This document shows positions 11,940 to 43,168 of a DNA stretch of 64,000 nucleotides, piece after piece. Every line of letters begins with the position of its first letter. Position 1 is the stretch's first letter. The notes beneath the pieces were generated by a model, which saw nothing but the letters and a program-made list of their open reading frames with translations, searched no databases and was not told where the DNA came from. The position numbers were made by a program, and so were the translations under genes. Source of the DNA: Acidobacteriota bacterium (GTDB lineage Bacteria > Acidobacteriota > UBA6911 > RPQK01 > JAJDTT01); NCBI GenBank assembly GCA_965209055.1, contig OZ242374.1, positions 448,001 through 512,000 on the forward strand, written 5' to 3'.

Positions 11940-14900
11940 ATGAAGATTCGAAACACCAGATCACTTGGGTTATTGGCCGTCGCGTTTGCCTTCGGGCTTG
12001 CGTTGACCACCGTCACGGTGGCCCAGGTCAGCAAGGGTGTCATTCTCGGCACCATCACCGACCAGACCGGCGCCGTCATGCCGGGCGCCGAGGTGGAGGT
12101 CGCCGCCACCGGGACCGGCGTCACCCGGCTCATGGTCACCGGCGAGGATGGCAACTACCGGATCGTGAATCTCGATCCCGGAGAGTACTCGGTTCGGGCC
12201 CTGCTGCCCGGCTTCAAGCCCAAGACCGTTCAGGGAATCATCCTCCAGGTGGACCAGCGGGCGCGGATCGACGTGGAGCTGGAGGTGGGCGAGGTCGCCG
12301 ACGAGGTGACGGTCCAGGGAGTCACTCCCATCATCGCCACCGACCAGGCGACGGTGGGCGAGGTCATCGAGCGGGAGAAGGTGCTGGAGCTGCCGTTGAA
12401 CGGGCGCCAGTTCCTTCAGTTGGCGGAACTGACGCCGGGCGTCCAGAGGACCACCGTCGGCTACATGGAATACAGCGGCGGCAGCATCTCGGCCAACGGG
12501 ATGTCCGACCACTCCAACAACACCATGGTCGACGGGGTCATGAATCAGGAGAGCGGCGCCGCCCGCATGAACTTCTCCCCCAGCATCGACCTGATCCAGG
12601 AGTTCAAGATCCAGACCAACGTCTATGACGCCGAGTTCGGCCGCAGCGGCGGGGCCCAGATCAACATCGTCACCAAGCGCGGGTCGCTCGACTACCACGG
12701 CGCCCTCTACATGTTTCACCGCAACGACAACCACGAGGCCCGGAACTTCTTCGCCAGGAGGATTCCCGAGTTCCGGCGGAGCCAATTCGGAGGCTCGTTC
12801 GGCGGACATATTCCGGGCTCGGAGGACGATTTCTTCTTCTTCAACTACGAAGGACAGCGGGCCGCTCGGGGCTTGACCGTTCCCATCAGCGTGCCTCCGG
12901 CGGATATCAGGAACGGTGACTTCTCGAGCCTGCTGGCGCCGGGCACAAACTGCATGGACCACAGCAACAACAAGGGTTGCATCTATGACCCGGCCACCCT
13001 GGATCCCGCGACCGGCACCCGGCAACCGTTCCCCAACAACATCATTCCCAATGACCGGATCACGCAGCAGGCGAAGTTCATCAACCAGTTCTTCCCCAAT
13101 CCGACGAGTGCGGGATTCTCCGGGAACTACGTTGCCAGCCCGGACCGGATTCGAGACAAGGACCAGTACTCGATTCGTTACGATCGCGACTTTTCCGACA
13201 GTGACTCCATCACCTTCCGCTTCACCTACCAGGACCGCAAATTCCTGGAGCCGCAGCCGCGGGGCAGCACGACACCTCTCGTCGGGTTCCGGCAGAATCA
13301 GGACCTGAACGGCGAAAATCACAAATTGGGATGGACGCACACGTTCAGCCCCACCACCATCAACTCCTTCAACTTCGGATTCAGCCAGTACCACCAGATT
13401 CGGGACAACGAGACGACGCTGCCGGACCTCTACGTGCAGGGAGGCAGCCGGGGCGCCGTCACCGGACCCGAATTCTTCGAGGGGGCGGGCATCACGGGAG
13501 TGGCCCCCGACCGGCAAAAGGCGGGAATACCGACCATCAACATCAGCGGCTGGAGGACCATTGCCGACGACACCTTCGCGCCGTTGGACAATCCCTACAA
13601 CAACTACGTCTACTCGAACACCTTGAACAAGGTTCAAGGCAACCACTCCTGGAAGGTGGGGATCGAAGTCATTCGCAACGCCATGGACATGGCGTTCGAG
13701 GCCAACAGCCGGGGCATCATCAGCTTCTCGCCCCGCTTCAGCGTCGCCAGCGTCGGAGCCCCCGGCGATCAGTTCAATGCCTGGGCCGACTACCTGCTGG
13801 GAGCGGTCACCAGTTCCGGCATCAACGGCGCACTGCTGCAGCTCAACACCAAGCAGACCTGGTGGATGTTCTTCCTCCAGGATGACTGGCACGTTCATCC
13901 GGACCTCACTCTGAATCTGGGAGTGCGCTACGAGATCTGGCAGCGCCCCTATGACGCGGAGAACCGGATCACCGGCATCGACATCGCGTCCGGCCAATGG
14001 GTGTTCGCGGAGTCGATTCCGACCCTGCCCGGCACACCCCCCAATGCGGTCACCAATGACGAATTTAACTACGATCGCAGCCTGCAGAAAGTCGGCGGGG
14101 CTGAAATGAACGATTGGGGCCCGCGGGTCGGTTTTGCCTGGCGCCTGTTCGGCGACAACAAGACGGTGCTCCGGGGTGGATACGGCGTCTTCTACAGTTG
14201 GCAGGTTCTGGACATTCCCATCACCATGGGACTGGGCCGGCCCTGGGTGCCGCCGACCAGCATCTCCAGCGACCGGGACGTTCCCGCCATCAGTTTCGGC
14301 AGTCCCTTCGGTACGACTGTCGTTCCCGCCACGGGAGGCCGGGGCCTGATCCGGGACAACCGAACCCCCTACCTGCAACAGTACTCCCTCAGCCTCGACC
14401 GCGAGCTGCTTCCCTCCATGGGAGTCGAAGTCGCCTACGTCGGGAATGCAGGCCGCAAGAACGTATTCAATTTCGGCCTCAACAATCCCTATCCGGGTCC
14501 CGAGCCCACGGCCGAGCGGAGGGCTCTCTGCCGCAACGCCGGCATCTGCGACCTGTCCGGGATCAGTGGGCCGGTCAACTGGGGCACCAGCAACTACAAC
14601 GCGCTTCAGGTCAAGTTGCGCAAAGAGATGGGACCGGATGGACTCATGCTCCTGGGCGCCTACAGTTGGGGCAAGGTCCTGGGGACCTCCATCGCGGGAC
14701 CCCAGCTCTGGGAAGGCCAGCCGATTCGCGACTGGAACCGGAACTGGAAGGCGGACACCGGTCCCACCAGGTACGACACGCGTCACCTCGCGTCTATCAG
14801 TTGGGTCTACCAGTTGCCCTTCGGACGGGGGAGGCCACTGGGCGGCGACATCGGACGAACAGCCGACCTGATCTTCGGCGGCTGGAAACTGGGTGGAATC

Positions 14901-15326
14901 GGCACCTTCCAAACCGGAGCGTTTCTGACCCCCAGAGACATCTTCAATGCCTCAAATGCCGGGGGAACGCGACCCAACCTGCTGCGCAATCCCAACGACC
15001 TGGGTCACTCGTCCCGGGATCAGATGATCAACCAGTTCTTCCACACCGGCGACAGGTACTTCGCACGGACCGCCCCGTTCACTTTCGGCAATGCCGGAAC
15101 GGGGACGATCGTGGGGCCGGGACTGCAGCTTTGGGACATTTCACTTTACAAGGACTTCTACGTGGCTGAAGAACAGCGGGTGCAGTTCCGCGTCGAGTTC
15201 TTCAACGCCTTCAACCATGTGAATTTCGGCAATCCCAATACCAGCTTCGGCTCGGCGGCGTTCGGAACCATCCGCAGCGCCGGCGACGCCCGGCAGGTCC
15301 AGTTCGGCCTGCGCTACGACTTTTAG
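11940..15326 (+). CDS. TonB-dependent receptor with carboxypeptidase-regulatory-like N-terminal domain (Oar-like)
   Basis: GTITDQTGAVMPGAEV, LPLNGRQFLQLA, AEFGRSGG, QFRVEFFNAFNHVNF and C-terminal RQVQFGLRYDF. Confidence 0.92.
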   Translation: MKIRNTRSLGLLAVAFAFGLALTTVTVAQVSKGVILGTITDQTGAVMPGAEVEVAATGTGVTRLMVTGEDGNYRIVNLDPGEYSVRALLPGFKPKTVQGIILQVDQRARIDVELEVGEVADEVTVQGVTPIIATDQATVGEVIEREKVLELPLNGRQFLQLAELTPGVQRTTVGYMEYSGGSISANGMSDHSNNTMVDGVMNQESGAARMNFSPSIDLIQEFKIQTNVYDAEFGRSGGAQINIVTKRGSLDYHGALYMFHRNDNHEARNFFARRIPEFRRSQFGGSFGGHIPGSEDDFFFFNYEGQRAARGLTVPISVPPADIRNGDFSSLLAPGTNCMDHSNNKGCIYDPATLDPATGTRQPFPNNIIPNDRITQQAKFINQFFPNPTSAGFSGNYVASPDRIRDKDQYSIRYDRDFSDSDSITFRFTYQDRKFLEPQPRGSTTPLVGFRQNQDLNGENHKLGWTHTFSPTTINSFNFGFSQYHQIRDNETTLPDLYVQGGSRGAVTGPEFFEGAGITGVAPDRQKAGIPTINISGWRTIADDTFAPLDNPYNNYVYSNTLNKVQGNHSWKVGIEVIRNAMDMAFEANSRGIISFSPRFSVASVGAPGDQFNAWADYLLGAVTSSGINGALLQLNTKQTWWMFFLQDDWHVHPDLTLNLGVRYEIWQRPYDAENRITGIDIASGQWVFAESIPTLPGTPPNAVTNDEFNYDRSLQKVGGAEMNDWGPRVGFAWRLFGDNKTVLRGGYGVFYSWQVLDIPITMGLGRPWVPPTSISSDRDVPAISFGSPFGTTVVPATGGRGLIRDNRTPYLQQYSLSLDRELLPSMGVEVAYVGNAGRKNVFNFGLNNPYPGPEPTAERRALCRNAGICDLSGISGPVNWGTSNYNALQVKLRKEMGPDGLMLLGAYSWGKVLGTSIAGPQLWEGQPIRDWNRNWKADTGPTRYDTRHLASISWVYQLPFGRGRPLGGDIGRTADLIFGGWKLGGIGTFQTGAFLTPRDIFNASNAGGTRPNLLRNPNDLGHSSRDQMINQFFHTGDRYFARTAPFTFGNAGTGTIVGPGLQLWDISLYKDFYVAEEQRVQFRVEFFNAFNHVNFGNPNTSFGSAAFGTIRSAGDARQVQFGLRYDF

Positions 15327-15505
15327 GAGGGGCTTTTTTGCTACCGCCCCGTCTCCACTATTGCGGTCAGCAAGCGTAGAGGGGGGACTGCCGTCCCCTA
15401 TACGATTGTAATCTACTAAGTATCTGATAATAATAAATTTATGATCTATTCTCCCGATCTGATTACCTCATTGAATCCCACCTTCTAAACGGGATTCCAT
15501 TCGAC

Positions 15506-16108
15506 CCTATTGGAGGTCCGTGGACTCCATGGACGTACGCGTTCGGTCAAGCCGTGGAAGAGTTTCGAGCCTCGACTCCAATGTTTGAAGAGCCTGCGCG
15601 CTCCAGGAACAGGCGGCGTACAGTCGGAGCCGACCGGATCCGTTCGGCCAGTACTTGCTAACGACGTATACTCCGCCGATGATCCTTCACCTTATAGATA
15701 GATGCCCATGCATCTCCACCCTTCTGGATCCGGGTTCTTCGCCGTGGGGCGAATCGTACCACGGCTCCAGGGAATCGACATAAGCGGTCAGGTCCTACAG
15801 GACGAAGCCACGGCGATGACTTTTGCCGCTATTTTGGGGCCAACCCCTCCAAGGCGGGTGAAAAAACTGTCGTCAACGACTTTCGCAGAAAGCCGCTACG
15901 CGAGTTGAAGAAGATCGAAGAGACGCGGCTGGGACTCAACTACAATCTGGCGCGGGGCGTCCTCATTGTCGAGCCATCGGCGCCGTCCGTTCCCGTCCTC
16001 ACCGAGTAGGCGGCGCGGTTCTTTCCACACCCCCAGGGGCTTTTCCATGCACAAACGCGTAGGAGGTCTCATCAAAACGACCGTACAATCTCGTAGAGTT
16101 TTCTTCAT
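15506..16108 (-). pseudogene. Probable decayed gene with a helix-hairpin-helix-like motif (LGGVGPKIAAKVI)
   Basis: Protein-like reading continues across internal stops and a frameshift below ORF 15896-16108. Confidence 0.3.
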
Positions 16109-16266
16109 ATAGTTGAGAACCAGTTGTTAGTTACAAGTGGAGCGACCTTGATGTGGAAACCGACAGGAGGGGAATCTGGACTCGGACCCGGAGCCAGCAA
16201 GGTAGCGGCGGCTCATTCCTCAAAGGCGAGTTGGACGGCAGGGGGCAACAAACTGGCGGGAGCAAG

Positions 16267-17370
16267 ATGCACCCGAAACTGAAAGAAATTCTCTTACCTG
16301 CTTACCAGTGTGTTGGATTTACCGGCACCTGTACTTCATTGATGCAGTGGGCTCCACACCTGGGGCATGTGCCGAGAGGATTCTACGGAGCGACGGGAGA
16401 TTTGGAGGAAGTCACCTTGGTTCTGGTTCTGGCAGAACCGGGGAATCCCAGCCCCGATCCAGGACCAGAAGAATGCTATTCTGACGTTGACTCCGCGTTT
16501 GCCTTCACCGGACACTGCTTCCTGACTGCCGGTGGTCAGGGACACGAAAACGTACGGAATCTCATCTGTAGATGCTTCCCTGGATTGTCCTTGGTGAACG
16601 CCATGCGGAAGGTTTGGATTACTGAATCGGTGCTGTGCTCTGCTCCCTCCCCAGGAGCTACTGTCGGAGTTGACATCGAGCGCTTCTGTGCAGAGCGGTT
16701 TCTCCTGAGTCAGTTACGCTTGTTCCCACTAGCCACGATAGCGGCCATGGGTTCCAAGGCCATGGCTCGGCTCACACGGTACCAGGCCCAAATCCCCAAC
16801 CGAATCGTGAAGTGTGGTGCAGTCTTTCCTCCAGGATGCAACTTCAAATCCACCAGAGATAGTTGGGACAGGCTTGTAGAAATTGTCACCGAACAGGGCA
16901 AAGGAGAGTCTGCTCGTGGGGAGGAGTACCCAGTAAAGTTGAGATCTTCCCCTCCGCGCCGCCGGGGGCTCGGATCTCGTGCCGAAAGACGAGCAAGTGC
17001 ACCACGACCCGGACCGATTCCGCATTGGGAAAACGATCTGAGCCTACTGAAGCACCTGATCGAGATTATTCGGTCCGAGTTGCCGCCTGATTGTCAAACT
17101 ACGTGCATCACTCCGACCAAGAAGAGAGTGAGCTTGGATATCCCCTATCCGTTCTCCCGGCTGACCAACTCGCGGAAGTTGGTCAAGATGTTCGTCCGCC
17201 CAACGCAAGGTGTCCATGTCATGGTGCCACCGGACCTAGACCTGGAAAGTCGAGGCTGGGATCTTCACGAGAAGCAGGACAGTGCGGGAGATCAGAAACT
17301 TCTCTTCCCCTTCAATAAGGCTGAAACGTTGGCCAGAAAGCTGGGAAAGGATTTGGCCACGTTCCTTTGA
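16267..17370 (+). CDS. Uracil-DNA glycosylase superfamily protein with an extra C-terminal domain
   Basis: VLVLAEPG (motif A-like), WITESVLC, FCAERFLLSQLRLFP..IAAMGSKA; several Cys at positions reminiscent of Fe-S UDGs; ATG 16267 preferred over GTG 16153. Confidence 0.6.
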   Translation: MHPKLKEILLPAYQCVGFTGTCTSLMQWAPHLGHVPRGFYGATGDLEEVTLVLVLAEPGNPSPDPGPEECYSDVDSAFAFTGHCFLTAGGQGHENVRNLICRCFPGLSLVNAMRKVWITESVLCSAPSPGATVGVDIERFCAERFLLSQLRLFPLATIAAMGSKAMARLTRYQAQIPNRIVKCGAVFPPGCNFKSTRDSWDRLVEIVTEQGKGESARGEEYPVKLRSSPPRRRGLGSRAERRASAPRPGPIPHWENDLSLLKHLIEIIRSELPPDCQTTCITPTKKRVSLDIPYPFSRLTNSRKLVKMFVRPTQGVHVMVPPDLDLESRGWDLHEKQDSAGDQKLLFPFNKAETLARKLGKDLATFL

Positions 17371-17464
17371 GGATCAGTCCGGCGCCTGGTGACTTGAGAC
17401 GCCACCGGAGCCGACATTCGAGCCGCCGCTTCGAGGATTCCTTCGATCTGGAGAGATTTGTATC

Positions 17465-19327
17465 ATGGGCTGCATGAAAATGCCTGTGAAATACATCGTA
17501 CTGGTCACTCTGATCTCCACTGGTCTTGCGTCGGAGCAAAACCCAATCGACTTTGGTCGTCCCTCGCACGTTGTCGGCGGAGAGAGCGTTACCGGTGGCG
17601 AATTCCCCTTCGTGGCGAAAATCATCTATTACGGCAGCAGCGTCGGCTGCACCGGCAGTCTCATTGCTCCCAACAGGGTACTCACCGCCGGACACTGTGT
17701 GGTGGATTGGAGAACACGAACGCTTTCCGTAGGATTTGGATCATCGCGGTCGGCGGGATCCAGTTTCAAAGTCACTCGTAGAATATGGCACCCAGAATAT
17801 TCAGTTCAAGAGTACGATATCGCGATTCTTGAGTTCGAGCCGCCCGTTTCAATCCAGCCCGTTCGCGTGCTGTCTTTCGAGGACGAGCTGCAATATGCCC
17901 CCAGTGGAGGGCAAGGAATGGCTGTGGGCTGGGGCCGGACGGTCTCCGGCGACCCGGATTCGTTGCCCGCTAGGTTGCACAAGGTTTCGGTGCCGATCTA
18001 CACGCAGGCAGACTACTAACGGATATTGAACGAGCTGCGCGATCAAGGGAAAGATCCACAGCCGCCATCCATCCATGAATTGATCCTCTGCGCCGGTCAG
18101 GAGAATCAGGCTCCTGCGCACGGTGACAGTGGTGGGCCGCTGTTGGTACCAACCCCCGAAGGTTGGGCACAGGTAGGAGTCTTATCGCAGGCGACACAGA
18201 ATCGACAACAGACGATCTACTACATGGGGCAATATACTCGTACGTCTTTCTTATACGACTGGATATTCCCCTCGGATGTTGGGGATCAACCCGAGGACCC
18301 ACCCGAGGACCCACCTGAGACAATCGATCCCTATCGCATCCACTTTGCCCATTTCGGCACTGGCGATGGACTGGAAACCGATTTGTTGCTGCTGAATCCG
18401 CAGTCGGATGTCGCGGTCGAAGCTTCAGTGGAAGTGTTCAGCACGGACGGTACATTGCTTTTTCCGACTCGTCAGGTCGCCGCTCCACCGGCAGGGATGG
18501 TGGAATGGACGCTCCCTGTCGGTGACGAACTTGAAACAGGAAGCATCGTGGTGACGTCGCCTGCAAGGCTGTCGGGAGTCCTGCGGTTCAGATACAGCGA
18601 TGGCGGCGCCACTGCCATCAGTGCGACGCCGTTGGGGAGCAGTTTTGTTGTTCCCGTTAGTAACCAAGCCGAGCGTATCGGATTGGCCATACGAAATGCT
18701 GACGCTGAAGCTCTTGACGTAGCGCTCAAGTTGGGAACGCTTCCGAGAGTCTTCAAGACCATCCCTGGCGAGGGCCAAATCGCCGCCTTCATCGACGAGT
18801 ATTTCCCAAGTCAAACCGACCAGGAACTTGAAGGAACTCTACTCGTGCAGACGGAACCGCCAGAAGGCGAAATCACCGTATTGGCGTTAGAGTTTGTTGG
18901 TGACTCATTGGTGACATTACCTGCGACGGTATTGACAACTCCGATCATGGATAATCAACGAAAATTCAGCGATGGGGAGTCAACGGCGACTATCGAGTAC
19001 GAGCTTGATGCCGCCAAGGGGGAAGCCAAAATGGAGGCCGTTATCGTCAATAACGGTCCCACGCAAGCGTTCACTGTATATTGGCGACCCATCGACGCCG
19101 ATTGCAATTCAACTCACCCGGGTGGTGGTTGGTGGTCGGTGATGTATGAAAAGTCTGTCAGCGGTGGGTCTACGCAGACGTTCACTCTGAACACGAGTGG
19201 AGACAGGAGCTACCCGATCTCTGCGAATACGAAATGGTTGGAATGGTGGGTCCGGACAGCGAAGGAGCGGGAATGGGAGAATCTGGAACCTAAGACGAAG
19301 TGCGAGAAGCCATTCCGAGGACTGTGA
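17465..19327 (+). pseudogene. Secreted trypsin-like (S1) serine protease with C-terminal beta-rich domains, split by an in-frame TAA at 18017-18019
   Basis: VVGG start, LTAGHC and YDIAIL in 17465-18019; GDSGGPL in 18026-19327; both ORFs are in the same frame. Confidence 0.85.
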
Positions 19328-19487
19328 GATCAGACCGACTATTCCCGCGAGTCAAAGCTCTCCTTCCGCCCCCTGGCGCGAAGACTTCCGCAGGCCTTCG
19401 CAGAATCGGTTTCTGGTGCGACGTGTGGACTTCCGATTCAAGGAACCGGATCGACTCTTGTCGTCGCTCCCTTTCCATAGAGAGGTG

Positions 19488-19745
19488 CTAGCGCCTATTC
19501 TGCTGTATGGAGATCCTCTCCACCAAATTGCGGCTGGCGCGCCGTCGGTGCCGGTCGTAGATCTGGGTGTTGTGGGGATGGGCGCGCCCGGACAGGTACT
19601 GGATGTCCCCGAGCGGGTCGTTCTGACTCTACAGATCCGTCACCACTAGGTAGTGGAATGGTGGGGTGGGAGGATCTTCGGCAACCTAGCGACCTTGAGC
19701 CAGCGCTTAAACATCTGCTCCACGGCGAGTGGTGAAAACAACGGT
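19488..19745 (-). pseudogene. C-terminal remnant of a XerC/D-like tyrosine recombinase
   Basis: QMFKRWLKVARLPKILPPH, then after a frameshift LVVTDL*SQNDPLGDIQYLSGRAHPHNTQIYDRHRRRASRNLVERISI, the typical degraded GH...TTxLYD tail. Confidence 0.75.
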
Positions 19746-19751
19746 CGGATA

Positions 19752-20051
19752 GCCTTCCCGCAGGGATATTTTGGAAGGGAGCGACCCCCCCAGGGGGTGT
19801 GGCGCAGACGTAAATTGCGCCACACCCCCGCGCCCGCACCGGGCAGGAAAAAGGGGGGGTCGCTCCCTTCCACCTCCGCTTTCCCCGTGCGGGCACGGCG
19901 GAGCCGAAAACATGGCCGTAACAGCATGAGCGACAAAGAGATCGGGGAAATCGCGTGTGTAAGTTGGCAGACTCCCATGATGTAAGTTGCCCCCGTTGTC
20001 TCCCTTACACTCCCGGATCGACACGGTGGGGCGCTCTGTACCCGTCAAAAT
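19752..20051. repeat. Structured ~300-bp non-coding element, copy 1
   Basis: 19-bp perfect stem 19773-19791 / 19853-19871 enclosing two hairpins; homologous to 20376-20675, 31571-31905 (inverted) and 33927-34225. Confidence 0.85.
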
Positions 20052-20375
20052 GAGCTCCCCGGCAAGCGTGTCGCCCGCCACGAGAGCGTCGCGAACGTCG
20101 TCGTCGATCTCCACGCCGGCGGCGCGATCTTCCGCCCCTGGTCGCCACTCGATGGCCGGTCTCAGCGAGGCCCTGACGCTGCCATAGCCGTCGAATCGGC
20201 CCGCGTCCCTTTCAGCACACCCCGCATTTCTGGAAGAAGATTGCCTGTTCAATCCGCCAGATCACTCCGTCCAGCCATGGGGCCGTCCACAGACGCTTGT
20301 ACGAGCACTGGCACGCGGCGGCTTGCCCACCGCGCCGTTCCGTGCCGCAGCGCCACGCGCTCAGGCGATCCAGAC

Positions 20376-20675
20376 GCCTTCCCGGCAGGGATCATTGGGA
20401 CGGGAGCGACCCCCCGAGGCGATGGCACGGAGAGTGCCCATCAGCCTGCCCCGCTTTGCCGATCCGGGAGGCAAAAAAGGGGGGTCGCTCCCGTCCACCT
20501 CCGCTTTCCCCGAGCGGCACCGCCGAGCCGCGAGGCGAGCCGTAACCCGAACGAGGACAGCAAGTTAGAGGAAAGTCGCCGTGCACGGCGAAGAGCCCTC
20601 ATGGTGCACATGCCCTCCGTTGTCTCATGTGCACTCCCCGAGCGGCACGGAACCCCACTTTTCAGCGGTCAAGAT
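20376..20675. repeat. Structured ~300-bp non-coding element, copy 2 (diverged)
   Basis: 18-bp perfect stem 20398-20415 / 20479-20496; inner sequence diverged but still base-pairs; flanking blocks conserved. Confidence 0.8.
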
Positions 20676-20740
20676 CGACCTCCCGGAATCCGGCTCGAAC
20701 CCCAGATCACGAAGCCTGCCGGGAGAACCACCACGGCGGA

Positions 20741-21976
20741 TCAACGGAGCCGGCCGGCCACCCGTTCCGGACTCTCGCCAGCCAGATAGCTCGCCCAGTC
20801 CTCCATGAGCCGACGCCGACGCTCGAACAGGTCCGTGCGCCGGTACGCCGCCTCGACCTTGTTCTTCACCACATGCGCCAGCGCCGCCTCGACCACCTCG
20901 CGTGGATGATCCGTCTCCTCGGCCGCCCAGTCCCGGAAACTCGACCGGAACCCGTGCGGCACGGCGGCGATCCCGTTCCGGCGCAGCAGCTTGCGCAACC
21001 GGCCGGAGCCGAGCGGCTTTCCGCCCCTTCGGGCGAAGATCAACCGGGTGGCTCCATGATCCAGCGTGCGTGCCTTCTCCAGGATCTCATTCGCCCGGCG
21101 GCACAAAGGCACCCGGTGCGCCCGTTTGGTCTTCATGCGCATTCCGGGAACCGTCCACGTCCTTTGCGCCGGATCGATCTCCGGCCACTCGGCCCACCGC
21201 ACCTCGCCCCACCTCGCCGCCGTGAGCACCAGGAACTCGAAGGCCAGCAGGGACACGGGCATCGCGTTGGAGGCCCGCACCTTCCGGAGGGCCGCCCCCA
21301 CCTCGCGATGCGGCAAGGCCGGCATGTGCCGCACCACGTCGTCCTGTGCTCCGAGCACCGACACGACCCGGTCGCAGGGGTTGTCGGTCCGGTATTCCAT
21401 CGCCACGGCCCACTCCAGGACCGTGCGGAGGCGCTGACGCACGGTCCGGGCCGTGCGCGACTTCACGTGCCAGATGGGCACGAGGATCTCCAGGACGTCG
21501 CCGCTGGTCACCTCCGAGACCGGCATCCGGCCGATGTGAGGAAAGGCGTAGCGTCGAAAGCTCGCCATCCAGTCGTGGGCCTGCCTCTGATTGCGCCAGC
21601 CGGCCCGCTTCTGCTCCACCACCCGCTCGGCGGCTTCGGCGAAGGTCGGCATGTTGCGCGTGCGTCGTCTCTCGGTCAGGGGATCTCCACCCTCGCGGGC
21701 CAGCTTGCGGTTGGCCCGCGCCTTCTCGCGGGCCTCGGCCAGGGACACCAGTGCCACACCGCCGAGTCCGAAGTCGCGGCGGCGGCCGCGGATGACGAGG
21801 CGTTGGATCCAGCTTCGTGCTCCGTTAGGCTTGACGAAGAGGTAGAGTCCGTTGCCGTCGCAGTGTTTGCCCGGTGGGGCGGAGCGCACGAAAGCGGCGG
21901 AGAGCGCCTTGTGGGGGTGGCGGCCCTTCGGCTTGGTCTTCCGGGGCAAAAGGGGAGCACTGATTACATCACCCAT
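20741..21976 (-). CDS. int: P4-type tyrosine integrase (arm-binding DUF4102-like N-terminus), apparently intact
   Basis: GKHCDGNGLYLFV..GARSWIQR, VSLAEAREKA, catalytic R (TAARWGE), K (MKT), HGFR, LAH and AY. Confidence 0.92.
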   Translation of the reverse strand: MGDVISAPLLPRKTKPKGRHPHKALSAAFVRSAPPGKHCDGNGLYLFVKPNGARSWIQRLVIRGRRRDFGLGGVALVSLAEAREKARANRKLAREGGDPLTERRRTRNMPTFAEAAERVVEQKRAGWRNQRQAHDWMASFRRYAFPHIGRMPVSEVTSGDVLEILVPIWHVKSRTARTVRQRLRTVLEWAVAMEYRTDNPCDRVVSVLGAQDDVVRHMPALPHREVGAALRKVRASNAMPVSLLAFEFLVLTAARWGEVRWAEWPEIDPAQRTWTVPGMRMKTKRAHRVPLCRRANEILEKARTLDHGATRLIFARRGGKPLGSGRLRKLLRRNGIAAVPHGFRSSFRDWAAEETDHPREVVEAALAHVVKNKVEAAYRRTDLFERRRRLMEDWASYLAGESPERVAGRLR

Positions 21977-22146
21977 TACACCATAATAAACGGGATGGAG
22001 ATGGATATCAAGGGACGTCAGGGGAGGAAGAAACGGGGTGAGAACAGGTCTAAACTAAAGAAAAACAACCACTTAAAATATATTCCGGGATCTCTTGGGA
22101 TATCTCTGGATTCAATGGGTGTGTTGCCGTCCCCCCTACCCCCCTG

Positions 22147-22176
22147 TCGGCGGTAGGAAAGTCGCCGCTCCCCTAC
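22147..22176. repeat. REP-like element (GTAGGGGAGCGGCGACTTTCCTACCGCCG on the minus strand)
   Basis: Similar to the 3677 and 5003 units; its GTAG head contains the stop codon of the DUF1501 gene. Confidence 0.65.
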
Positions 22177-23624
22177 GCCATTATTTCGGTGACGGCGTGT
22201 CCGTGGACGTCGGTCAGGCGGCGTTCGATGCCGTTGTGGTAGTAGGTGAGGCGTCTATGGTCGATCCCCAGCAGGTGAAGGACCGTGGCGTGGTAGTCGT
22301 AGATGGTGACCGGGCTCTCCGCCGGCTTGTAGCCCAGCTCGTCTGAAGCTCCATAGATGAACCCCGGCTTGAGGCCGGCCCCGGCCAGCCAGCAGGTGAA
22401 GCACTCGGGGTGATGGTCCCGTCCCAGGGCGCCTCCCTGGGCCACGGGCGTCCGGCCGAACTCGGTCACCCCCAAGACGAGCGTGTCCTCCAGCATGCCG
22501 CGCGAATCCAGGTCCTGGAGCAGGCCGGCGACGGGACGATCGTACTCCAGCGCCATCTTGGTGTGGTTTTTCTCCAGTCTGCCATGGGCATCCCAGCTGT
22601 TTCCCGGGCCGCCGTTGTAAACCTGGACGAATCGAACTCCGCGCTCCAGCAGGCGGCGCGCCAGCAGACAGCGGCGGCCGAACGCTTCGGTTTCTTTCGC
22701 GTCCAGGCCGTAGAGTCGGCGGGTGCTCTCGCTTTCCCGCTCGATATCGGCAATTTCAGGGACGCTCAACTGCATCCGCGCCGCCAGCTCGTAGGATTTG
22801 AGCCGCGCCTCCAGCGAGCTGTCGCCCGGATGCGCTTGCTGGTAGACGCGATTCATGCGTGTCAGCCACTTCAGGCCGGCGCGCCGCTGGGCGGGCGGGA
22901 CAGATTCGGGAGTGGTCAGATCATGCAGTGCATCGCCGGACGTGCGAAACGGCGTCCCCTGGTGGGAAGCGGGCAAGAAAGAAGCGCCCCACTGCAGAAC
23001 GCCTCCCCAGGGGTGGTCGGCGGGGTCGGGCAGGACGACGAACGCCGGCAGGTCTTCGTTCTCGGTCCCCAGCCCGTAGCTGATCCAGGCCCCCATGCTG
23101 GGAAAGCCGCTCAGCGGAAAACCGGTGTTCATCTGGGCCACCGCCGGCATGTGGTTGGCGCTTTTGGAGACCATGGATTGAATGAGCGTGAGATTGTCGG
23201 CGCACCCGGCCAGATGCGGCAGCAGGCTGCTCACCCAGAGTCCACTCTCGCCGCGCCGGCGGAACTCGAACGGACTCCCGAAAAGGTGGCCGGCCTCTCC
23301 GAAGAACGTGGTCATTTTGAACGGGGTGCCGTTGCGCCTGGTGAGTTCGGGTTTGTAGTCCAACGTGTCGAGGTGGCTCATGCCGCCGAGTGCGAACACC
23401 TGGACGACGCGCTTGGCTCTGGGAGTAAAGTGCGGCAGTTGGCTCGACCCGGAGGCTGGGGCGTTCCCGCGCGCCGCACCCGCGGCCAACGCTTCCCGAT
23501 GGGTCAACCACGAGAGCGCCATCCAGCCGAATCCCGCTCCGGCATCGAAGAGCCATCGGCGGCGGGACAGCGGGCTGAATCGGCGTTGTATTGCTGAGAG
23601 TCCGGCCATACGGCAATCCGTCAA
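22173..23624 (-). CDS. DUF1501 (sulfatase-like) protein with Tat-like signal
   Basis: SRRRWL, HFTPRAKRVVQVFALGGMSHLDTLDYKP, LLARRLLERGVRFVQV, TEFGRTP, GRDHH. Confidence 0.92.
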   Translation of the reverse strand: MTDCRMAGLSAIQRRFSPLSRRRWLFDAGAGFGWMALSWLTHREALAAGAARGNAPASGSSQLPHFTPRAKRVVQVFALGGMSHLDTLDYKPELTRRNGTPFKMTTFFGEAGHLFGSPFEFRRRGESGLWVSSLLPHLAGCADNLTLIQSMVSKSANHMPAVAQMNTGFPLSGFPSMGAWISYGLGTENEDLPAFVVLPDPADHPWGGVLQWGASFLPASHQGTPFRTSGDALHDLTTPESVPPAQRRAGLKWLTRMNRVYQQAHPGDSSLEARLKSYELAARMQLSVPEIADIERESESTRRLYGLDAKETEAFGRRCLLARRLLERGVRFVQVYNGGPGNSWDAHGRLEKNHTKMALEYDRPVAGLLQDLDSRGMLEDTLVLGVTEFGRTPVAQGGALGRDHHPECFTCWLAGAGLKPGFIYGASDELGYKPAESPVTIYDYHATVLHLLGIDHRRLTYYHNGIERRLTDVHGHAVTEIMA

Positions 23625-26659: not shown

Positions 26660-26977
26660 GAGAGGGACCTGCGGGCAATTTTACACCAACCGCGGCTCTT
26701 GTCTCGAACGGTAGGAGCGGGGGTTTTCCAATCCCGTCCGCCCCTCAGTCAAGAACTACTAAACATTAACGTTTTCAGTCATTTTTCGGGTTCTTCGCCG
26801 AATCGGAAAAGTGGTTGACTCCCTGTGTCTGGCACGCTGCACAGGCAACAAACAGGCAGCATAGTCAACACCCGAAAGCCGACACATCCTTCCTCGTTTC
26901 CGATCTGCCCTACCGGACAGACTCGCCAAATCCCTTTTTTTCGGAGGCTATACCCTGCGTTTCTACCGCCATGGTTC

Positions 26978-39561: not shown

Positions 39562-42500
39562 ATGCATCAGGCACCTCGTCTGCGCCCCGGCATCCTGGCG
39601 CTCACCCTGGCACTCGTCATTTGCCTCTCCCTGCCCCACGCGTACGGTCAGTTGACCACGTACGGACAGATCGTGGGACGCGTCATCGACCAGACGGGAG
39701 CCGTGGTCCCAGGGGTCGAAATCACCGTCACCAACACGGAAACCAACATTCCCCGAGCCGCAGTCAGCAACGACACGGGGAACTACCTGGTGGACAAGCT
39801 CATCGCCGGTGTCTACGAGGCCCGGGCGGAATTGCCCGGATTCAAGACCCACGTGGCCGAGGTTCGCTTGAACACCGGTCAGGTGGCGCGTCTCGATTTT
39901 CTCCTGGCTCCCGGCGAGATCGCCGAACAGGTCACCGTCATGGGACAGACCACGGCGCTGGACACGGACACGGCGGACATCAGCACCACGCTGGACGAGA
40001 CCCAGATCACGGAGTTGCCCATCAACGACCGGAACCTGATCCTGCTGGCGGAACTCTCCACCGGTTCGGTCAGCGTTCGCTACTCGACGGACCCCCGCTT
40101 CGTCCGTGACTCGGGTGGTCTTCCGTCGGTCAACGGCCTGCGGCCCGACTCCAACCAGATCATGCTGGACGGCGCCGGCGCCCAGAGGCTCTACGATCAG
40201 CGGGCTACCGTGAATCCGACGCCGGAGACGGTCAAGCAGTTCAAGGTGATCAGCAACACCTTCTCGGCCGAGTACGGCCGGGTCGGAGGGGCCGTGGTGA
40301 GCATGACCAGCCACAGCGGCAGCAACGAGTTTCACGGCTTCGCCTGGGAGTATCTGCGCAACGAAGCGTTCGACGCCAACGGCTTTTTCGCCAACCGGAC
40401 CGGACTGGGCAAGCTGCCGTTGAGCCGCCACACCTTCGGCGGCGCCGTGGGCGGGCCCATCATCAAGGACAAGACCTTCTTCTACGCCAGCTACGAGCGC
40501 TTCATGGACGAGTCGAACCTGACCGGCTTCATGGACGTTCCTCCCGCCTCGGAGTTGGCGGGGAATTTCGGAGCGGGCGACGGGAAGCACGGCCTGAATC
40601 CCATCTACGACCCCTTCAACGTGGTCGACGGGCAGCGGGTCCAATTTCCCAACAACGTCATCCCCACCAGCAGAATCCATCCCGTCTCCCTGGCGGTTCG
40701 GGACAAGGTGCCCTGGCCATCTCCAAACCAGAACGTCTATCCCAACTACGCCTATCCCCACGTCATCGACCAGGTGAAGAACAAGGTCTCGATTCGAGGG
40801 GATCACCACTTGGGCGATGATTCGACGCTCTTCGGGCGCTGGACCTGGCAGAACGACCCGCAGATCTCCCACGGCTCGGCGTCGGCCGGATCCTTCGGCT
40901 TCTTCGTCGGGCGCGGTCGGCTCGGTGTTCCCGGGATGAGAAGCAACGTCTACGAGGTGTTTACCGAGCTGGAGACCGGGTGGCAGACCAGCGGCGGCTG
41001 GGTCAAGCCGATCGGGACCAACGTGGTGAACGAGTTGAACTTCACCGGTTGGAAGTCGGACTTCGGCAACAACAGCGCCGACACGGTGGACTGGTTCCAG
41101 GAGTTCGGCTACGACCTGGCGGGGCAGGACGGCATCTTCGCCATCGGCGACAACGGCCAGCGCGGTCCCGCCGACCTGCCTTCCATCGGCATCAGCGGGT
41201 ATTCCAACATCCAGGGCCAGGGCGAGTTCGACCAGGGCGACTGGGGATTCAGCATCAAGGAGACGGCCTCCTGGCGAAAGGGCAACCACTACCTGAAAGT
41301 CGGAATCGGGACTATTCGGAACATGAACGTGCGGCTGGGCTGGGTGAGACCCACGGCTCGGGTCAGCTTCAACGGCTACCAGACGGGGCAGATCACCTAC
41401 GGCGCCGACGGCGGCATCACAGGTTCCACCTTCGGCCAGCCCTACGCCGATTTCCTGCTCGGCACCGTGTCGGATGCTCAGGCCAGGATCACGGGAGGGG
41501 CCGGATACGGCCTCGGAAACTTCGGCGGCTACAATCAGTCGGCCTACAACTGGTTCATCAACGACGACTGGAAGGTCACGCCGGACCTCAGCCTGAACAT
41601 TGGATTGAGGCACGAAATCCCCCTTCCGGAGCACTGGCTGGACAACAAGGGGAACTGTTTTATAGACGTGACCGGAGGGCGGGACAACCCCGTCCACATG
41701 GTGCCCAAGGGTTTCCCCTATGACTCTCCCCTGGTGACCAACGGCCAGCGGGAGGTCCTGGTGGTCCCGGTGGTGGAACTGGACAGCCAGCGCTGCCGGG
41801 GGGTTCCTTGGCAGAGCTTCGCCCCCAGAGTGGGAATCGCCTGGCGGATGTTCGGCACCAACCGGACGGTCCTGCGCGCCGGTGGCGGCCTGTCTTTCGA
41901 CCAGGAGTACGGTGGCTGGAAGGTGGGCGTCGGCTGGGTCGGCCCCTATGTGGGCACCGTCCGCGGCATCCAGGCTCGGGGACAGGTTCCCGAGTACATG
42001 CACGGCGGCTTCCTGGACCTGCCCTCCACGTCGGCGGCCAGAGTGCACAGCGACGGCGCCTACTCGTATGACGGCAGCGGCTCCCAGACCGGCCAGGTCT
42101 ACAGCTACAACCTGTCGATTCAGCACGAGCTGTTCGACGACACCAAGGTGGAGATCGCCTACGTGGGCAATCAGGGCCGGCACATGAGAAATCATCGGGC
42201 CTGGAACGTGTCGCAGATCGCCGGACAGCCCATCATCCTGAACACCGGAGAGACGATCCGGGCGGAAGGGAACCGGGATATGAGGCGCCCCTATCCGCTG
42301 ATCGCCACCACCCTGCAGATCCGCTTCGACGGGTCGCAGCACTACAACTCGCTGCAGGCCAAGATCGAGCGGATGCCGAGGGACGGCCTTGGCATCTCGG
42401 CCGGTTGGACCTACGGCCGGGTCTTCGCCACCAACTACGCCGGAACCTATATCGCGGTGGTGCCCAACGAGTTCGACCGCACGCCGCTCAACACCCGGAC

Positions 42501-43050
42501 CAAGTGGGACCGGCTCCACAGCTACTACACGGCTTTCACCTGGAGACTGCCCATCTTTCGGAACGCCACCGGCCTCACCAGGACGTTGTTGGGAGGTTGG
42601 GAGGCCACCTCCGTCATCACCGCAGCCACCGGGTCGCCGTTCGGCGTCCGCGTGGGACGAGACGTGAACGACATCGGTTCCCGGCGCCTGTTGATGCCCG
42701 ACCGGTTGAGTACAGGTCAGCTTCCCGAGAGCCAGAGGACGGTGGATCGCTACTACGACGTCAGCGCCTTCGCGATACCGGCCGTGGGACGATTCGGCAA
42801 CTCACACATGTGGCCGCTGGAGGGGGATGGAATCAGCGTCTTCGACATCGGCCTCCACAAGGCGTTCGCCCTGGGAGAGGAAAAGGAGTTGGATTTCCGC
42901 GTGGAAATGTTCAACGCCTTCAACCATCCCATCTTCGATACGCCCGGTGGCAAGGGCGGACAGGACGCCATCGAGAGCGGCGGTGCCGGAAGGGTCTCTT
43001 CCGCCTCCCAGCCGCGCCGGCTCCAGTTCGCGTTCCGGTTTTCGTTCTGA
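39562..43050 (+). CDS. TonB-dependent receptor with carboxypeptidase-regulatory-like N-terminal domain
   Basis: GRVIDQTGAVVPGV, LPINDRN, SAEYGR, DFRVEMFNAFNHP and C-terminal RRLQFAFRFSF. Confidence 0.92.
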   Translation: MHQAPRLRPGILALTLALVICLSLPHAYGQLTTYGQIVGRVIDQTGAVVPGVEITVTNTETNIPRAAVSNDTGNYLVDKLIAGVYEARAELPGFKTHVAEVRLNTGQVARLDFLLAPGEIAEQVTVMGQTTALDTDTADISTTLDETQITELPINDRNLILLAELSTGSVSVRYSTDPRFVRDSGGLPSVNGLRPDSNQIMLDGAGAQRLYDQRATVNPTPETVKQFKVISNTFSAEYGRVGGAVVSMTSHSGSNEFHGFAWEYLRNEAFDANGFFANRTGLGKLPLSRHTFGGAVGGPIIKDKTFFYASYERFMDESNLTGFMDVPPASELAGNFGAGDGKHGLNPIYDPFNVVDGQRVQFPNNVIPTSRIHPVSLAVRDKVPWPSPNQNVYPNYAYPHVIDQVKNKVSIRGDHHLGDDSTLFGRWTWQNDPQISHGSASAGSFGFFVGRGRLGVPGMRSNVYEVFTELETGWQTSGGWVKPIGTNVVNELNFTGWKSDFGNNSADTVDWFQEFGYDLAGQDGIFAIGDNGQRGPADLPSIGISGYSNIQGQGEFDQGDWGFSIKETASWRKGNHYLKVGIGTIRNMNVRLGWVRPTARVSFNGYQTGQITYGADGGITGSTFGQPYADFLLGTVSDAQARITGGAGYGLGNFGGYNQSAYNWFINDDWKVTPDLSLNIGLRHEIPLPEHWLDNKGNCFIDVTGGRDNPVHMVPKGFPYDSPLVTNGQREVLVVPVVELDSQRCRGVPWQSFAPRVGIAWRMFGTNRTVLRAGGGLSFDQEYGGWKVGVGWVGPYVGTVRGIQARGQVPEYMHGGFLDLPSTSAARVHSDGAYSYDGSGSQTGQVYSYNLSIQHELFDDTKVEIAYVGNQGRHMRNHRAWNVSQIAGQPIILNTGETIRAEGNRDMRRPYPLIATTLQIRFDGSQHYNSLQAKIERMPRDGLGISAGWTYGRVFATNYAGTYIAVVPNEFDRTPLNTRTKWDRLHSYYTAFTWRLPIFRNATGLTRTLLGGWEATSVITAATGSPFGVRVGRDVNDIGSRRLLMPDRLSTGQLPESQRTVDRYYDVSAFAIPAVGRFGNSHMWPLEGDGISVFDIGLHKAFALGEEKELDFRVEMFNAFNHPIFDTPGGKGGQDAIESGGAGRVSSASQPRRLQFAFRFSF

Positions 43051-43058
43051 GGGAGAGA

Positions 43059-43168
43059 GGAGGGGGGGACGTCCTTGTCCCCCCCTCTACCGTGTTGGAA
43101 TCGTAAAGGGGAGACTAACGTCCCCCCTACCCCCTCGTTGCCGGGGACGGGAGTGTCCCCGCTCCGAC
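43059..43168. repeat. Cluster of three REP-like palindromes (GGGGGGGAC/GTCCCCCCC; GTAAAGGGGAGAC-TAAC-GTCCCCCCTAC; GGGGAC/GTCCCC-GCTCCGAC)
   Basis: Hairpins between convergent genes; 43103-43133 is an intact homologue of the site split by island 1. Confidence 0.75.

Follow-up and report, generated by a model that had tools for sequence, protein, structure and literature searches.

An integrase island in an Acidobacteriota genome very probably inserts at a multicopy REP-like hairpin

A 64,000-nucleotide stretch of the genome of an Acidobacteriota bacterium (contig OZ242374.1 of assembly GCA_965209055.1, forward-strand positions 448,001 to 512,000; below, the window) carries a 6,746-bp island, E1, at 15389-22134, with TGCCGTCCCC at both ends. 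It lies between a gene for a TonB-dependent-receptor-like outer-membrane protein and a convergent DUF1501 gene, and consists of a conserved left end, a cargo region, a non-coding backbone, the gene of a P4/CP4-like tyrosine integrase and a conserved right end (Table 1). An earlier note, made from the sequence alone, had read it as a P4-type integrase island inserted into a repetitive extragenic palindrome (REP) instead of a tRNA gene. Having followed this up in the host genome (G000, a single contig of 6.08 Mb) and in related genomes, we consider it very probable that E1 is a site-specific integrative element that inserts not at a tRNA gene but at a multicopy REP-like hairpin, its bacterial attachment site (attB).

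Both junctions, re-read in the window, are as the earlier note had given them. Joining the two flanks through the 10-bp core gives a hairpin whose stem has 9 bp (AGGGGGGAC/GTCCCCCCT) and whose loop has 4 nt, followed by a 2-nt bulge before a GT/AC pairing; because of the bulge the hairpin is not strictly perfect, contrary to the earlier claim. The adjoining downstream REP of that account is present, as a second palindrome (GGCGGTAGGAAAGTCGCC, 22149-22166) 3' of the rebuilt hairpin. The 10-mer by itself is poor evidence, with 85 occurrences on both strands of the genome against ~40 expected from composition, and its significance lies in its context. The GC content is 0.52-0.59 over 15200-19600, which includes the cargo part of E1, versus 0.60-0.69 in the flanks.

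A tblastn search with the E1 integrase returned 16 full-length paralogs in the host genome, five at 91-100% identity, one at 81% and ten at 62.5-65.5%. When the occurrences of the 10-mer were listed in full, the five close copies (elements E1-E5) all proved to share one junction pair: one side reads ..GGGGGGAC:TGCCGTCCCC:(T/A)..ACG..AAGTATCTGATA and the other ..GGATTCAATGG......:TGCCGTCCCC:CC.ACCCC..GGCG-hairpin, where colons mark the limits of the core. Beside E1, the elements measure 2,505 bp (E2), 16,396 bp (E3) and 3,169 bp (E4 and E5 each); a left end of ~255 nt and a right part of ~2.4 kb are common to all five, and the cargo between them varies. E4 and E5 are 98.8% identical across 3,169 bp and occupy different loci, which argues for recent spread. 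Since the flanks of E2 and E3 are paralogous (97.8% identity across 3 kb to the left and 94% across 1.8 kb to the right), four independent loci were counted in this genome; the flanks of E1, E4 and E5 are mutually unrelated. Two loci in other genomes (L045 and L047) hold the same type of element, with both junctions in the same hairpin and flanks unrelated to those of E1-E5. All six independent loci thus counted (6/6) lie in the hairpin and in one orientation throughout, the integrase-proximal end being joined to the 3' arm. A further genome, G008, has an element at the E1 locus and another at the E2/E3-type locus, which were counted as shared with G000 and not as new loci. In a pattern scan of 15 genomes, five sites were found in G000, two in G008, one in G006 and none in the other 12. 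The elements of the close integrase homologues, five here and two from other genomes, thus interrupt one and the same hairpin at an identical position, in agreement with what the earlier note had proposed for E1.

One may ask whether the hairpin is the target at all, or whether it belongs to the element's own ends, arose with a segmental duplication or REP-REP recombination, or is a palindrome artefact or a one-off secondary site. The paralogous flanks of E2 and E3 would fit a duplication, and E5 (L018, genome 1064605-1067773) has its two flanks 500-590 kb apart in seven of seven congeners, which places it at a synteny or rearrangement breakpoint. Yet the flanks of E1, E4, E5, L045 and L047 are unrelated, the junctions are base-precise at every locus with a constant orientation, and contiguous hairpins are abundant without an element, also at orthologous empty sites; we therefore give this explanation hardly any credence. 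In same-genus genomes, the receptor and DUF1501 genes stand next to each other without the island. At this empty E1 site, as the earlier note's reading implies, a contiguous hairpin is found in G005 (ATAGAGGGGGGAC-TCCC-GTCCCCCTAA, with a GGCG-type REP) and in G004 (GTACAGGGGAGAC-TACC-GTCCCCCCTAC), and it is on these two genomes and on the paralogous copies that the earlier presence of the hairpin at the E1 site rests. The locus on the attR side of E5 likewise has a contiguous hairpin in two of the three congeners examined, and G007 has an unrelated 1.3-kb insert at the E1 site. As a side observation, the 3' end of the receptor gene and the REP spacer are tandemly triplicated in G004 (L013), in units of ~545 nt.

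The hairpin is one of many. In its strict form (G5+AC-N3-7-GTC5+) it occurs 87 times in the genome, compared to a mean of 0.6 in five mononucleotide shuffles, and a looser form has 124 copies. A mismatch-tolerant pattern proved uninformative (449 matches versus 316 in a shuffle), and the strict pattern was used instead. An unoccupied copy folds, as single-stranded DNA, at z = -4.9 relative to shuffles. By hand count, ~24 unoccupied hairpins in REP context carry CGTCCCC at the boundary between loop and 3' arm, 9-10 of them with the full TGCCGTCCCC. The sites, which the earlier note had supposed to be harmless, lie after stop codons in the few cases inspected. A companion REP family of the form GGCGRY..RYCGCC has 827 copies and lies within 40 nt of 34 of the 124 looser hairpins. 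Because of its copy number, its palindromy and this clustering, "REP-like" is a fair label for the hairpin. The earlier note had called it a REP outright, which the same three properties favour, but the possible link to a REP-associated tyrosine transposase (RAYT) is to the companion GGCG family and not to the G-run hairpin itself: three hairpins of the GGCG type lie 60-200 nt upstream of a 252-aa Y1_Tnp protein (29.7 bits against a cut-off of 23). The intact homologue reported for 43103-43168 does exist, just 3' of a second receptor gene (39562-43050) whose CarboxypepD_reg and OMP_b-brl_4 architecture is that of the gene beside E1, and it includes the putative overlap CGTCCCC; with one mismatch in the stem, however, it folds unremarkably (z = -1.28).

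The association with tRNA genes that would be expected of a P4-type island was not found. The genome has 69 tRNA and tmRNA genes, of which the nearest is 1,278 nt away from any of the 16 integrases and at least 7.2 kb from E1-E5; the single tRNA of the window is 7.2 kb from the E1 integrase. Scanning species-representative genomes, we confirmed 582 stretches that encode relatives of this integrase, in Acidobacteriota, Gemmatimonadota and others and often in many copies per genome, and kept 78 loci at 61-93% identity. Of these, 72 come with enough upstream DNA, and at none of them does a tRNA or tmRNA gene appear in the 600 nt next to the integrase. Close homologues thus do not sit in tRNA genes; had they done so, E1 would have been, in the earlier note's terms, a one-off secondary site. 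The same hairpin is split instead. The earlier note's proposal of a multicopy repeat as attB is supported by the six of six loci, the 87 hairpins, the empty sites and the lack of tRNA association.

The identification of the enzyme itself is borne out by its domain content, with Arm-DNA-bind_3 (PF13356, 7.8e-18, residues 25-105), Phage_int_M (PF22022, 4.9e-25) and Phage_integrase (PF00589, 3.1e-13), and by a match of its N-terminal domain to the "CP4-like integrase" of PDB entry 3jtz (6.6e-8). Its translation contains the motifs HGFR..W and AAYRR, which we take to be the catalytic H-x-x-R and Y. The best phage integrases are 38-41% identical to it (including those of Caulobacter DMCA, Acidovorax Acica and Ralstonia RSY1), and the NCBIfam model PRK09692 scores 139.4 bits, below its cut-off of 434. 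Judged by these similarities, the E1 integrase is best classed as a distant member of the P4/CP4-like superfamily and not as a PRK09692 equivalog.

Table 1 Features of island E1, its surroundings and related elements (window positions unless stated otherwise)
Feature	Position	Strand	Remarks
TonB-dependent-receptor-like outer-membrane protein, 1128 aa, left host flank	11940-15326	+	Pfam OMP_b-brl_4 1.7e-205, CarboxypepD_reg, Plug, TonB_dep_Rec_b-barrel
Hairpin 5' arm GTAGAGGGGGGAC, host side of attL	15376-15388	+	arm precedes the core at 5/5 elements of the genome
attL core TGCCGTCCCC	15389-15398	+	10 bp; after GTAGAGGGGGGAC, before TATACG
Putative crossover region CGTCCCC, 7 bp	15392-15398	+	deduced from the L045 and L047 mismatches
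Conserved left element end (P' arm of attP)	15399-15655	+	AAGTATCTGATAATAA block; GATCTCT-like repeats (+21 and +54 relative to the core); 77-91% identical among elements
Variable cargo, E1-specific	15656-19753	.	405-aa open reading frame and interrupted trypsin-like protease gene; without counterpart in E2-E5
405-aa open reading frame, no family assigned	16153-17370		E1 cargo
Trypsin-like protease gene, in-frame TAA at 18017-18019	17465-18019 plus 18026-19327		Pfam Trypsin
Conserved non-coding backbone, 3' of the integrase gene	19754-20740	-	two tandem ~625-nt units, each with a ~215-nt long-hairpin module
P4/CP4-like tyrosine integrase, 411 aa, intact	20741-21976	-	Arm-DNA-bind_3, Phage_int_M, Phage_integrase
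Conserved right element end (P arm of attP), terminus ..CTGGATTCAATGGGTGTGT	21977-22124	+	GATCTCT-like repeats (-36 and -26 relative to the core)
attR core TGCCGTCCCC	22125-22134	+	10 bp; after GTGT, before CCTACCCCCC
Host side of attR: hairpin 3' arm GTCCCCCCTAC, C-run, adjoining REP GGCGGTAGGAAAGTCGCCGCTCC	22129-22171	+	layout also in unoccupied copies
DUF1501 gene, right host flank, convergent with the receptor gene	22173-23624	-	Pfam DUF1501 3.1e-148
Unoccupied target relative GTAAAGGGGAGAC-TAAC-GTCCCCCCTAC and second palindrome	43103-43168	+	3' of second receptor gene 39562-43050
Four B1 elements, outside the window	genome 67979/84050, 580228/571453, 2485335/2474458, 4968730/4956911		

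The elements form a family of 2.5-16.4 kb in which the P4/CP4-like tyrosine integrase is the only constant gene. In the minimal elements (2.5-3.2 kb) it is the only recognisable gene: the 18 other open reading frames of at least 45 aa in E5 gave no Pfam match at E<=1, and no Xis/AlpA-type gene was seen among them. The larger elements differ in their cargo. That of E3 (L016:2882-13113; genome 801798-818193) is a defence cluster of a C5 cytosine methyltransferase together with MzaB, MzaC, MzaD and MzaE, the last split into two open reading frames. In E1, the N-terminal part of the protease gene (17465-19327) weakly resembles the protease domains of Avs1b and LmuA. In two public sequencing runs of other studies, contig depth falls to zero over 15856-19551, within the E1 cargo, and the flanks are covered; related DNA is present in sponge and coral-reef metagenome runs. 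An Rfam search of the island gave nothing credible (one miRNA-like match, E 0.14).

The 215-nt module of the backbone carries a conserved long hairpin, GGACGGGAGCGA-CCCCCC ... GGGGGG-TCGCTCCCGTCC, with an inner hairpin and a few compensatory pairs; in E1, for example, 19772-19791 pairs with 19853-19872. Among its 60 genome copies, 19 lie beside P4-type integrases (in the same orientation), nine beside the Xer-like recombinase described below and 32 alone. The module has no Rfam match. A reading of it as an origin of transfer (oriT) was considered and is unsupported, the genome being without VirD4/TraG (PF02534), a PF03432 relaxase and VirB4 (PF03135).

How might the integrase use such a site? 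In the mechanism that we propose, attB would be the REP-like hairpin, with the consensus GTA-N-AGGGGGGAC / TGCC / GTCCCCCCTA and clustered with the main REP family, and the integrase would recombine the element's own site, attP (..GGATTCAATGGGTGTGT-TGCCGTCCCC-TCTACGG..), with the double-stranded hairpin sequence. The sequences of attL and attR agree over 10 bp in E1-E5 and differ at position 11 in all elements; in addition, core position 3 differs between attL and attR in L045 (G versus T) and L047 (C versus A). Because of these mismatches at positions 3 and 11, exchange appears to be confined to core positions 4-10. Strand exchange would thus fall in the final 7 bp of the core, (C/T)GTCCCC, where the loop meets the 3' arm; an overlap of 7 bp is usual for tyrosine recombinases. 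The 5' arm would be left at attL, and the 3' arm with the adjoining REP at attR, with the orientation constant throughout. Direct GATCTCT-like repeats flank the attP core and are likely arm-type sites for the N-terminal arm-binding domain. With tens of presumably intergenic hairpins in the host, several sites could be occupied at once by elements of varying cargo. What the sequences show directly is the anatomy of the junctions, the number and independence of the loci, contiguous hairpins at unoccupied and orthologous sites, the lack of tRNA association and the match between integrase clades and target classes. The 7-bp overlap, the arm sites, the double-stranded substrate and present-day activity are points that we infer.

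The same integrase and target could also operate on a different substrate, namely an extruded or single-stranded folded hairpin, as with integron attC or the attP of CTX phage. The target is a strong hairpin former (z = -4.9 for the unoccupied copy), the crossover region lies at the boundary of loop and arm, and a second, unrelated recombinase family of this genome also splits REP hairpins. The architecture of the enzyme is nevertheless heterobivalent and P4/lambda-like, and together with the arm-type repeats of attP it is typical of double-stranded attP x attB recombination. The core of 7-10 bp is identical at both junctions, as in classical integration, and the core region of attP is merely a degenerate copy of the hairpin, with GGGTGTGT where the target has GGGGGGAC. 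We consider a folded substrate improbable and retain recombination between double strands.

Other subfamilies of the integrase abut other repeats. In a maximum-likelihood tree of 33 integrases, each target class forms a supported clade (A 97/92, U 100/98, B1 99/95, B2 98/94, V 100/99, C 100/99, T 99/98), and because of this the tree suggests that the integrase may determine the target. The B1 paralogs of the host genome, with ~64% identical integrases, abut a dispersed repeat of ~170 nt, which is present in at least 28 copies. This repeat is split by four B1 elements (7.4-14.7 kb; Table 1), its missing left half being found at the far end; the duplication is of the CCCCGGCGG(A/G)CT type, with the 11-bp core CCCGGCGG(A/G)CT. 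Rfam searches of this repeat and of the unoccupied hairpin site gave nothing credible (RsmW at 26.6 bits versus a cut-off of 52). The paralog at 81% identity occupies a single conserved locus that is also used in G001 and G004. B2 and two relatives (75-86% identity) have junctions that abut a CCTTGCGGGAAGG-type motif, which also ends the 215-nt module. Taken together, this suggests that particular repeats are tied to subclades: the G-run REP hairpin, the 170-nt repeat, the 215-nt module and possibly segments of repeat-coding genes.

Further junction motifs were noted in more distant loci. Gemmatimonadota loci (L050-L068, L109, others) and Versatilivorator loci (L072-L093) show shared junction motifs that give way to unrelated flanks. 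Among these relatives in other phyla, one motif reads ..GCTACAG:TGACGGTGAC.. (the colon marking the junction) and apparently lies in repeats that encode VTVT; further motifs are ..GCCGT:TGCGGCGGCGGCAGCA.. and ..GTTGCTGCACAGGAAGCTGACT...

Within the host genome, we also observed an unrelated element of 2.7 kb, which encodes a 404-aa Xer-like tyrosine recombinase and is likewise bounded by split REP hairpins. It has ~26 copies genome-wide (for example L017:5169-6383, minus strand), including copies near 26742 and 36586 in the window. Its left junction, ..GGGGGGACTGTTAGTCC:caactgtccc, recurs at at least nine loci with unrelated upstream flanks, and its right junction reads ..GGGACTGTTAGTCCCCC up to the boundary. 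Sub-families have other hairpin variants at both ends (a TAACA loop; GGGGCGATTTCCAATCC; GGGGGTTTTCCTATCC).

Several observations weigh against the hairpin as attB, or against parts of the account built on it. G001 and G002 are island-free at the E1 site and have other REPs there, not this hairpin. In one related element (L048/L031), the junction next to the integrase borders on a hairpin in reverse orientation, without the canonical core, and the relatives L046 and L070 (75-86% identity) are found at a different site. All five occupied sites of the host genome have a TGCC loop, although a preference for it is not significant (TGCC versus other loops ending in C, with E2 and E3 counted once: 4/14 versus 0/14, p = 0.098). 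The Pfam search of the E5 open reading frames recognised no recombination directionality factor. The sequences of the integrase tree were hand-picked for the target classes and not chosen blind, and L047 and L048 were left out of it because their raw translations contain a stop. The public runs, whose contigs break at the repeat, gave no direct evidence of excision, circles or integration; the contigs of X20 and X22, for instance, end at 15399 and resume at 22128. One joint in X2 connects 15394 to 22147 across the island, but its shorter side measures 23 nt and any unoccupied hairpin is a possible source.

Compared to known systems, E1 and its relatives share with the P4/CP4-57-like integrases of satellite phages and genomic islands the three-domain architecture, the position of the integrase gene beside one att junction and the short identical core at both. 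In those systems attB is usually single-copy and lies at the 3' terminus of a tRNA or tmRNA gene, and a heterobivalent phage-type integrase normally comes with one island per tRNA gene. The E1 family differs from them in that its attB is a dispersed hairpin with tens of copies, that several elements coexist per genome, and that the minimal elements lack any other recognisable gene, notably AlpA/Xis. Palindromic, hairpin-forming or multicopy sites also serve other tyrosine recombinases, as with the integron integrase and attC, integrative mobile elements exploiting Xer (IMEX) and CTX phage; unlike the E1 integrase, integron and Xer-type recombinases are without an arm-binding N-terminal domain, and their substrates are folded single strands or the single-copy dif.

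Targeting of REPs is otherwise known from insertion sequences (IS). IS3, IS110 and other IS families, such as ISPpu9/ISPpu10, ISPsy8 and ISPa11, insert with high specificity into REP palindromes, which offer them harmless sites in many copies (PMC1525189; bioRxiv 10.1101/2025.01.17.633520). These elements move by DDE or DEDD transposases, whereas the E1 family has a tyrosine recombinase with putative arm-type sites, an att-type identical core at its junctions and cargo of up to ~12.5 kb. For ISPpu9, a small RNA is reported 3' of the transposase gene that also exists as separate copies (bioRxiv 10.1101/2025.01.17.633520), a layout that recalls the 215-nt module of the E1 family. In the full-text literature, with subscription journals outside the coverage, a REP did not turn up as the attB of any tyrosine integrase; REP targeting was reported only for insertion sequences.

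Whether the family stands for an undescribed class of IS-like, "repeat-hunting" tyrosine-integrase elements seems to us an even question. Such elements would be minimal units of an integrase and its att site that multiply within a genome by using dispersed repeats of the host as attB. They would shift their target with the divergence of the integrase and act as a chassis for defence genes. In favour of this are the large clade of 582 stretches, the different repeats associated with its subclades and the convergence of the Xer-like family on REP hairpins.

The use of a repeat as attB would explain how integrase islands can reach at least 16 copies in one genome without damage to genes. In nature the family also comprises closely related integrases whose targets differ and are easily read, which makes it useful for studying the evolution of att specificity and for integrase engineering, and it gives defence systems such as Mza a simple vehicle. 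For annotators there is a caution, as island finders keyed to tRNA genes will miss such elements. If the class proves real, REPs would be general landing pads for tyrosine-recombinase elements.

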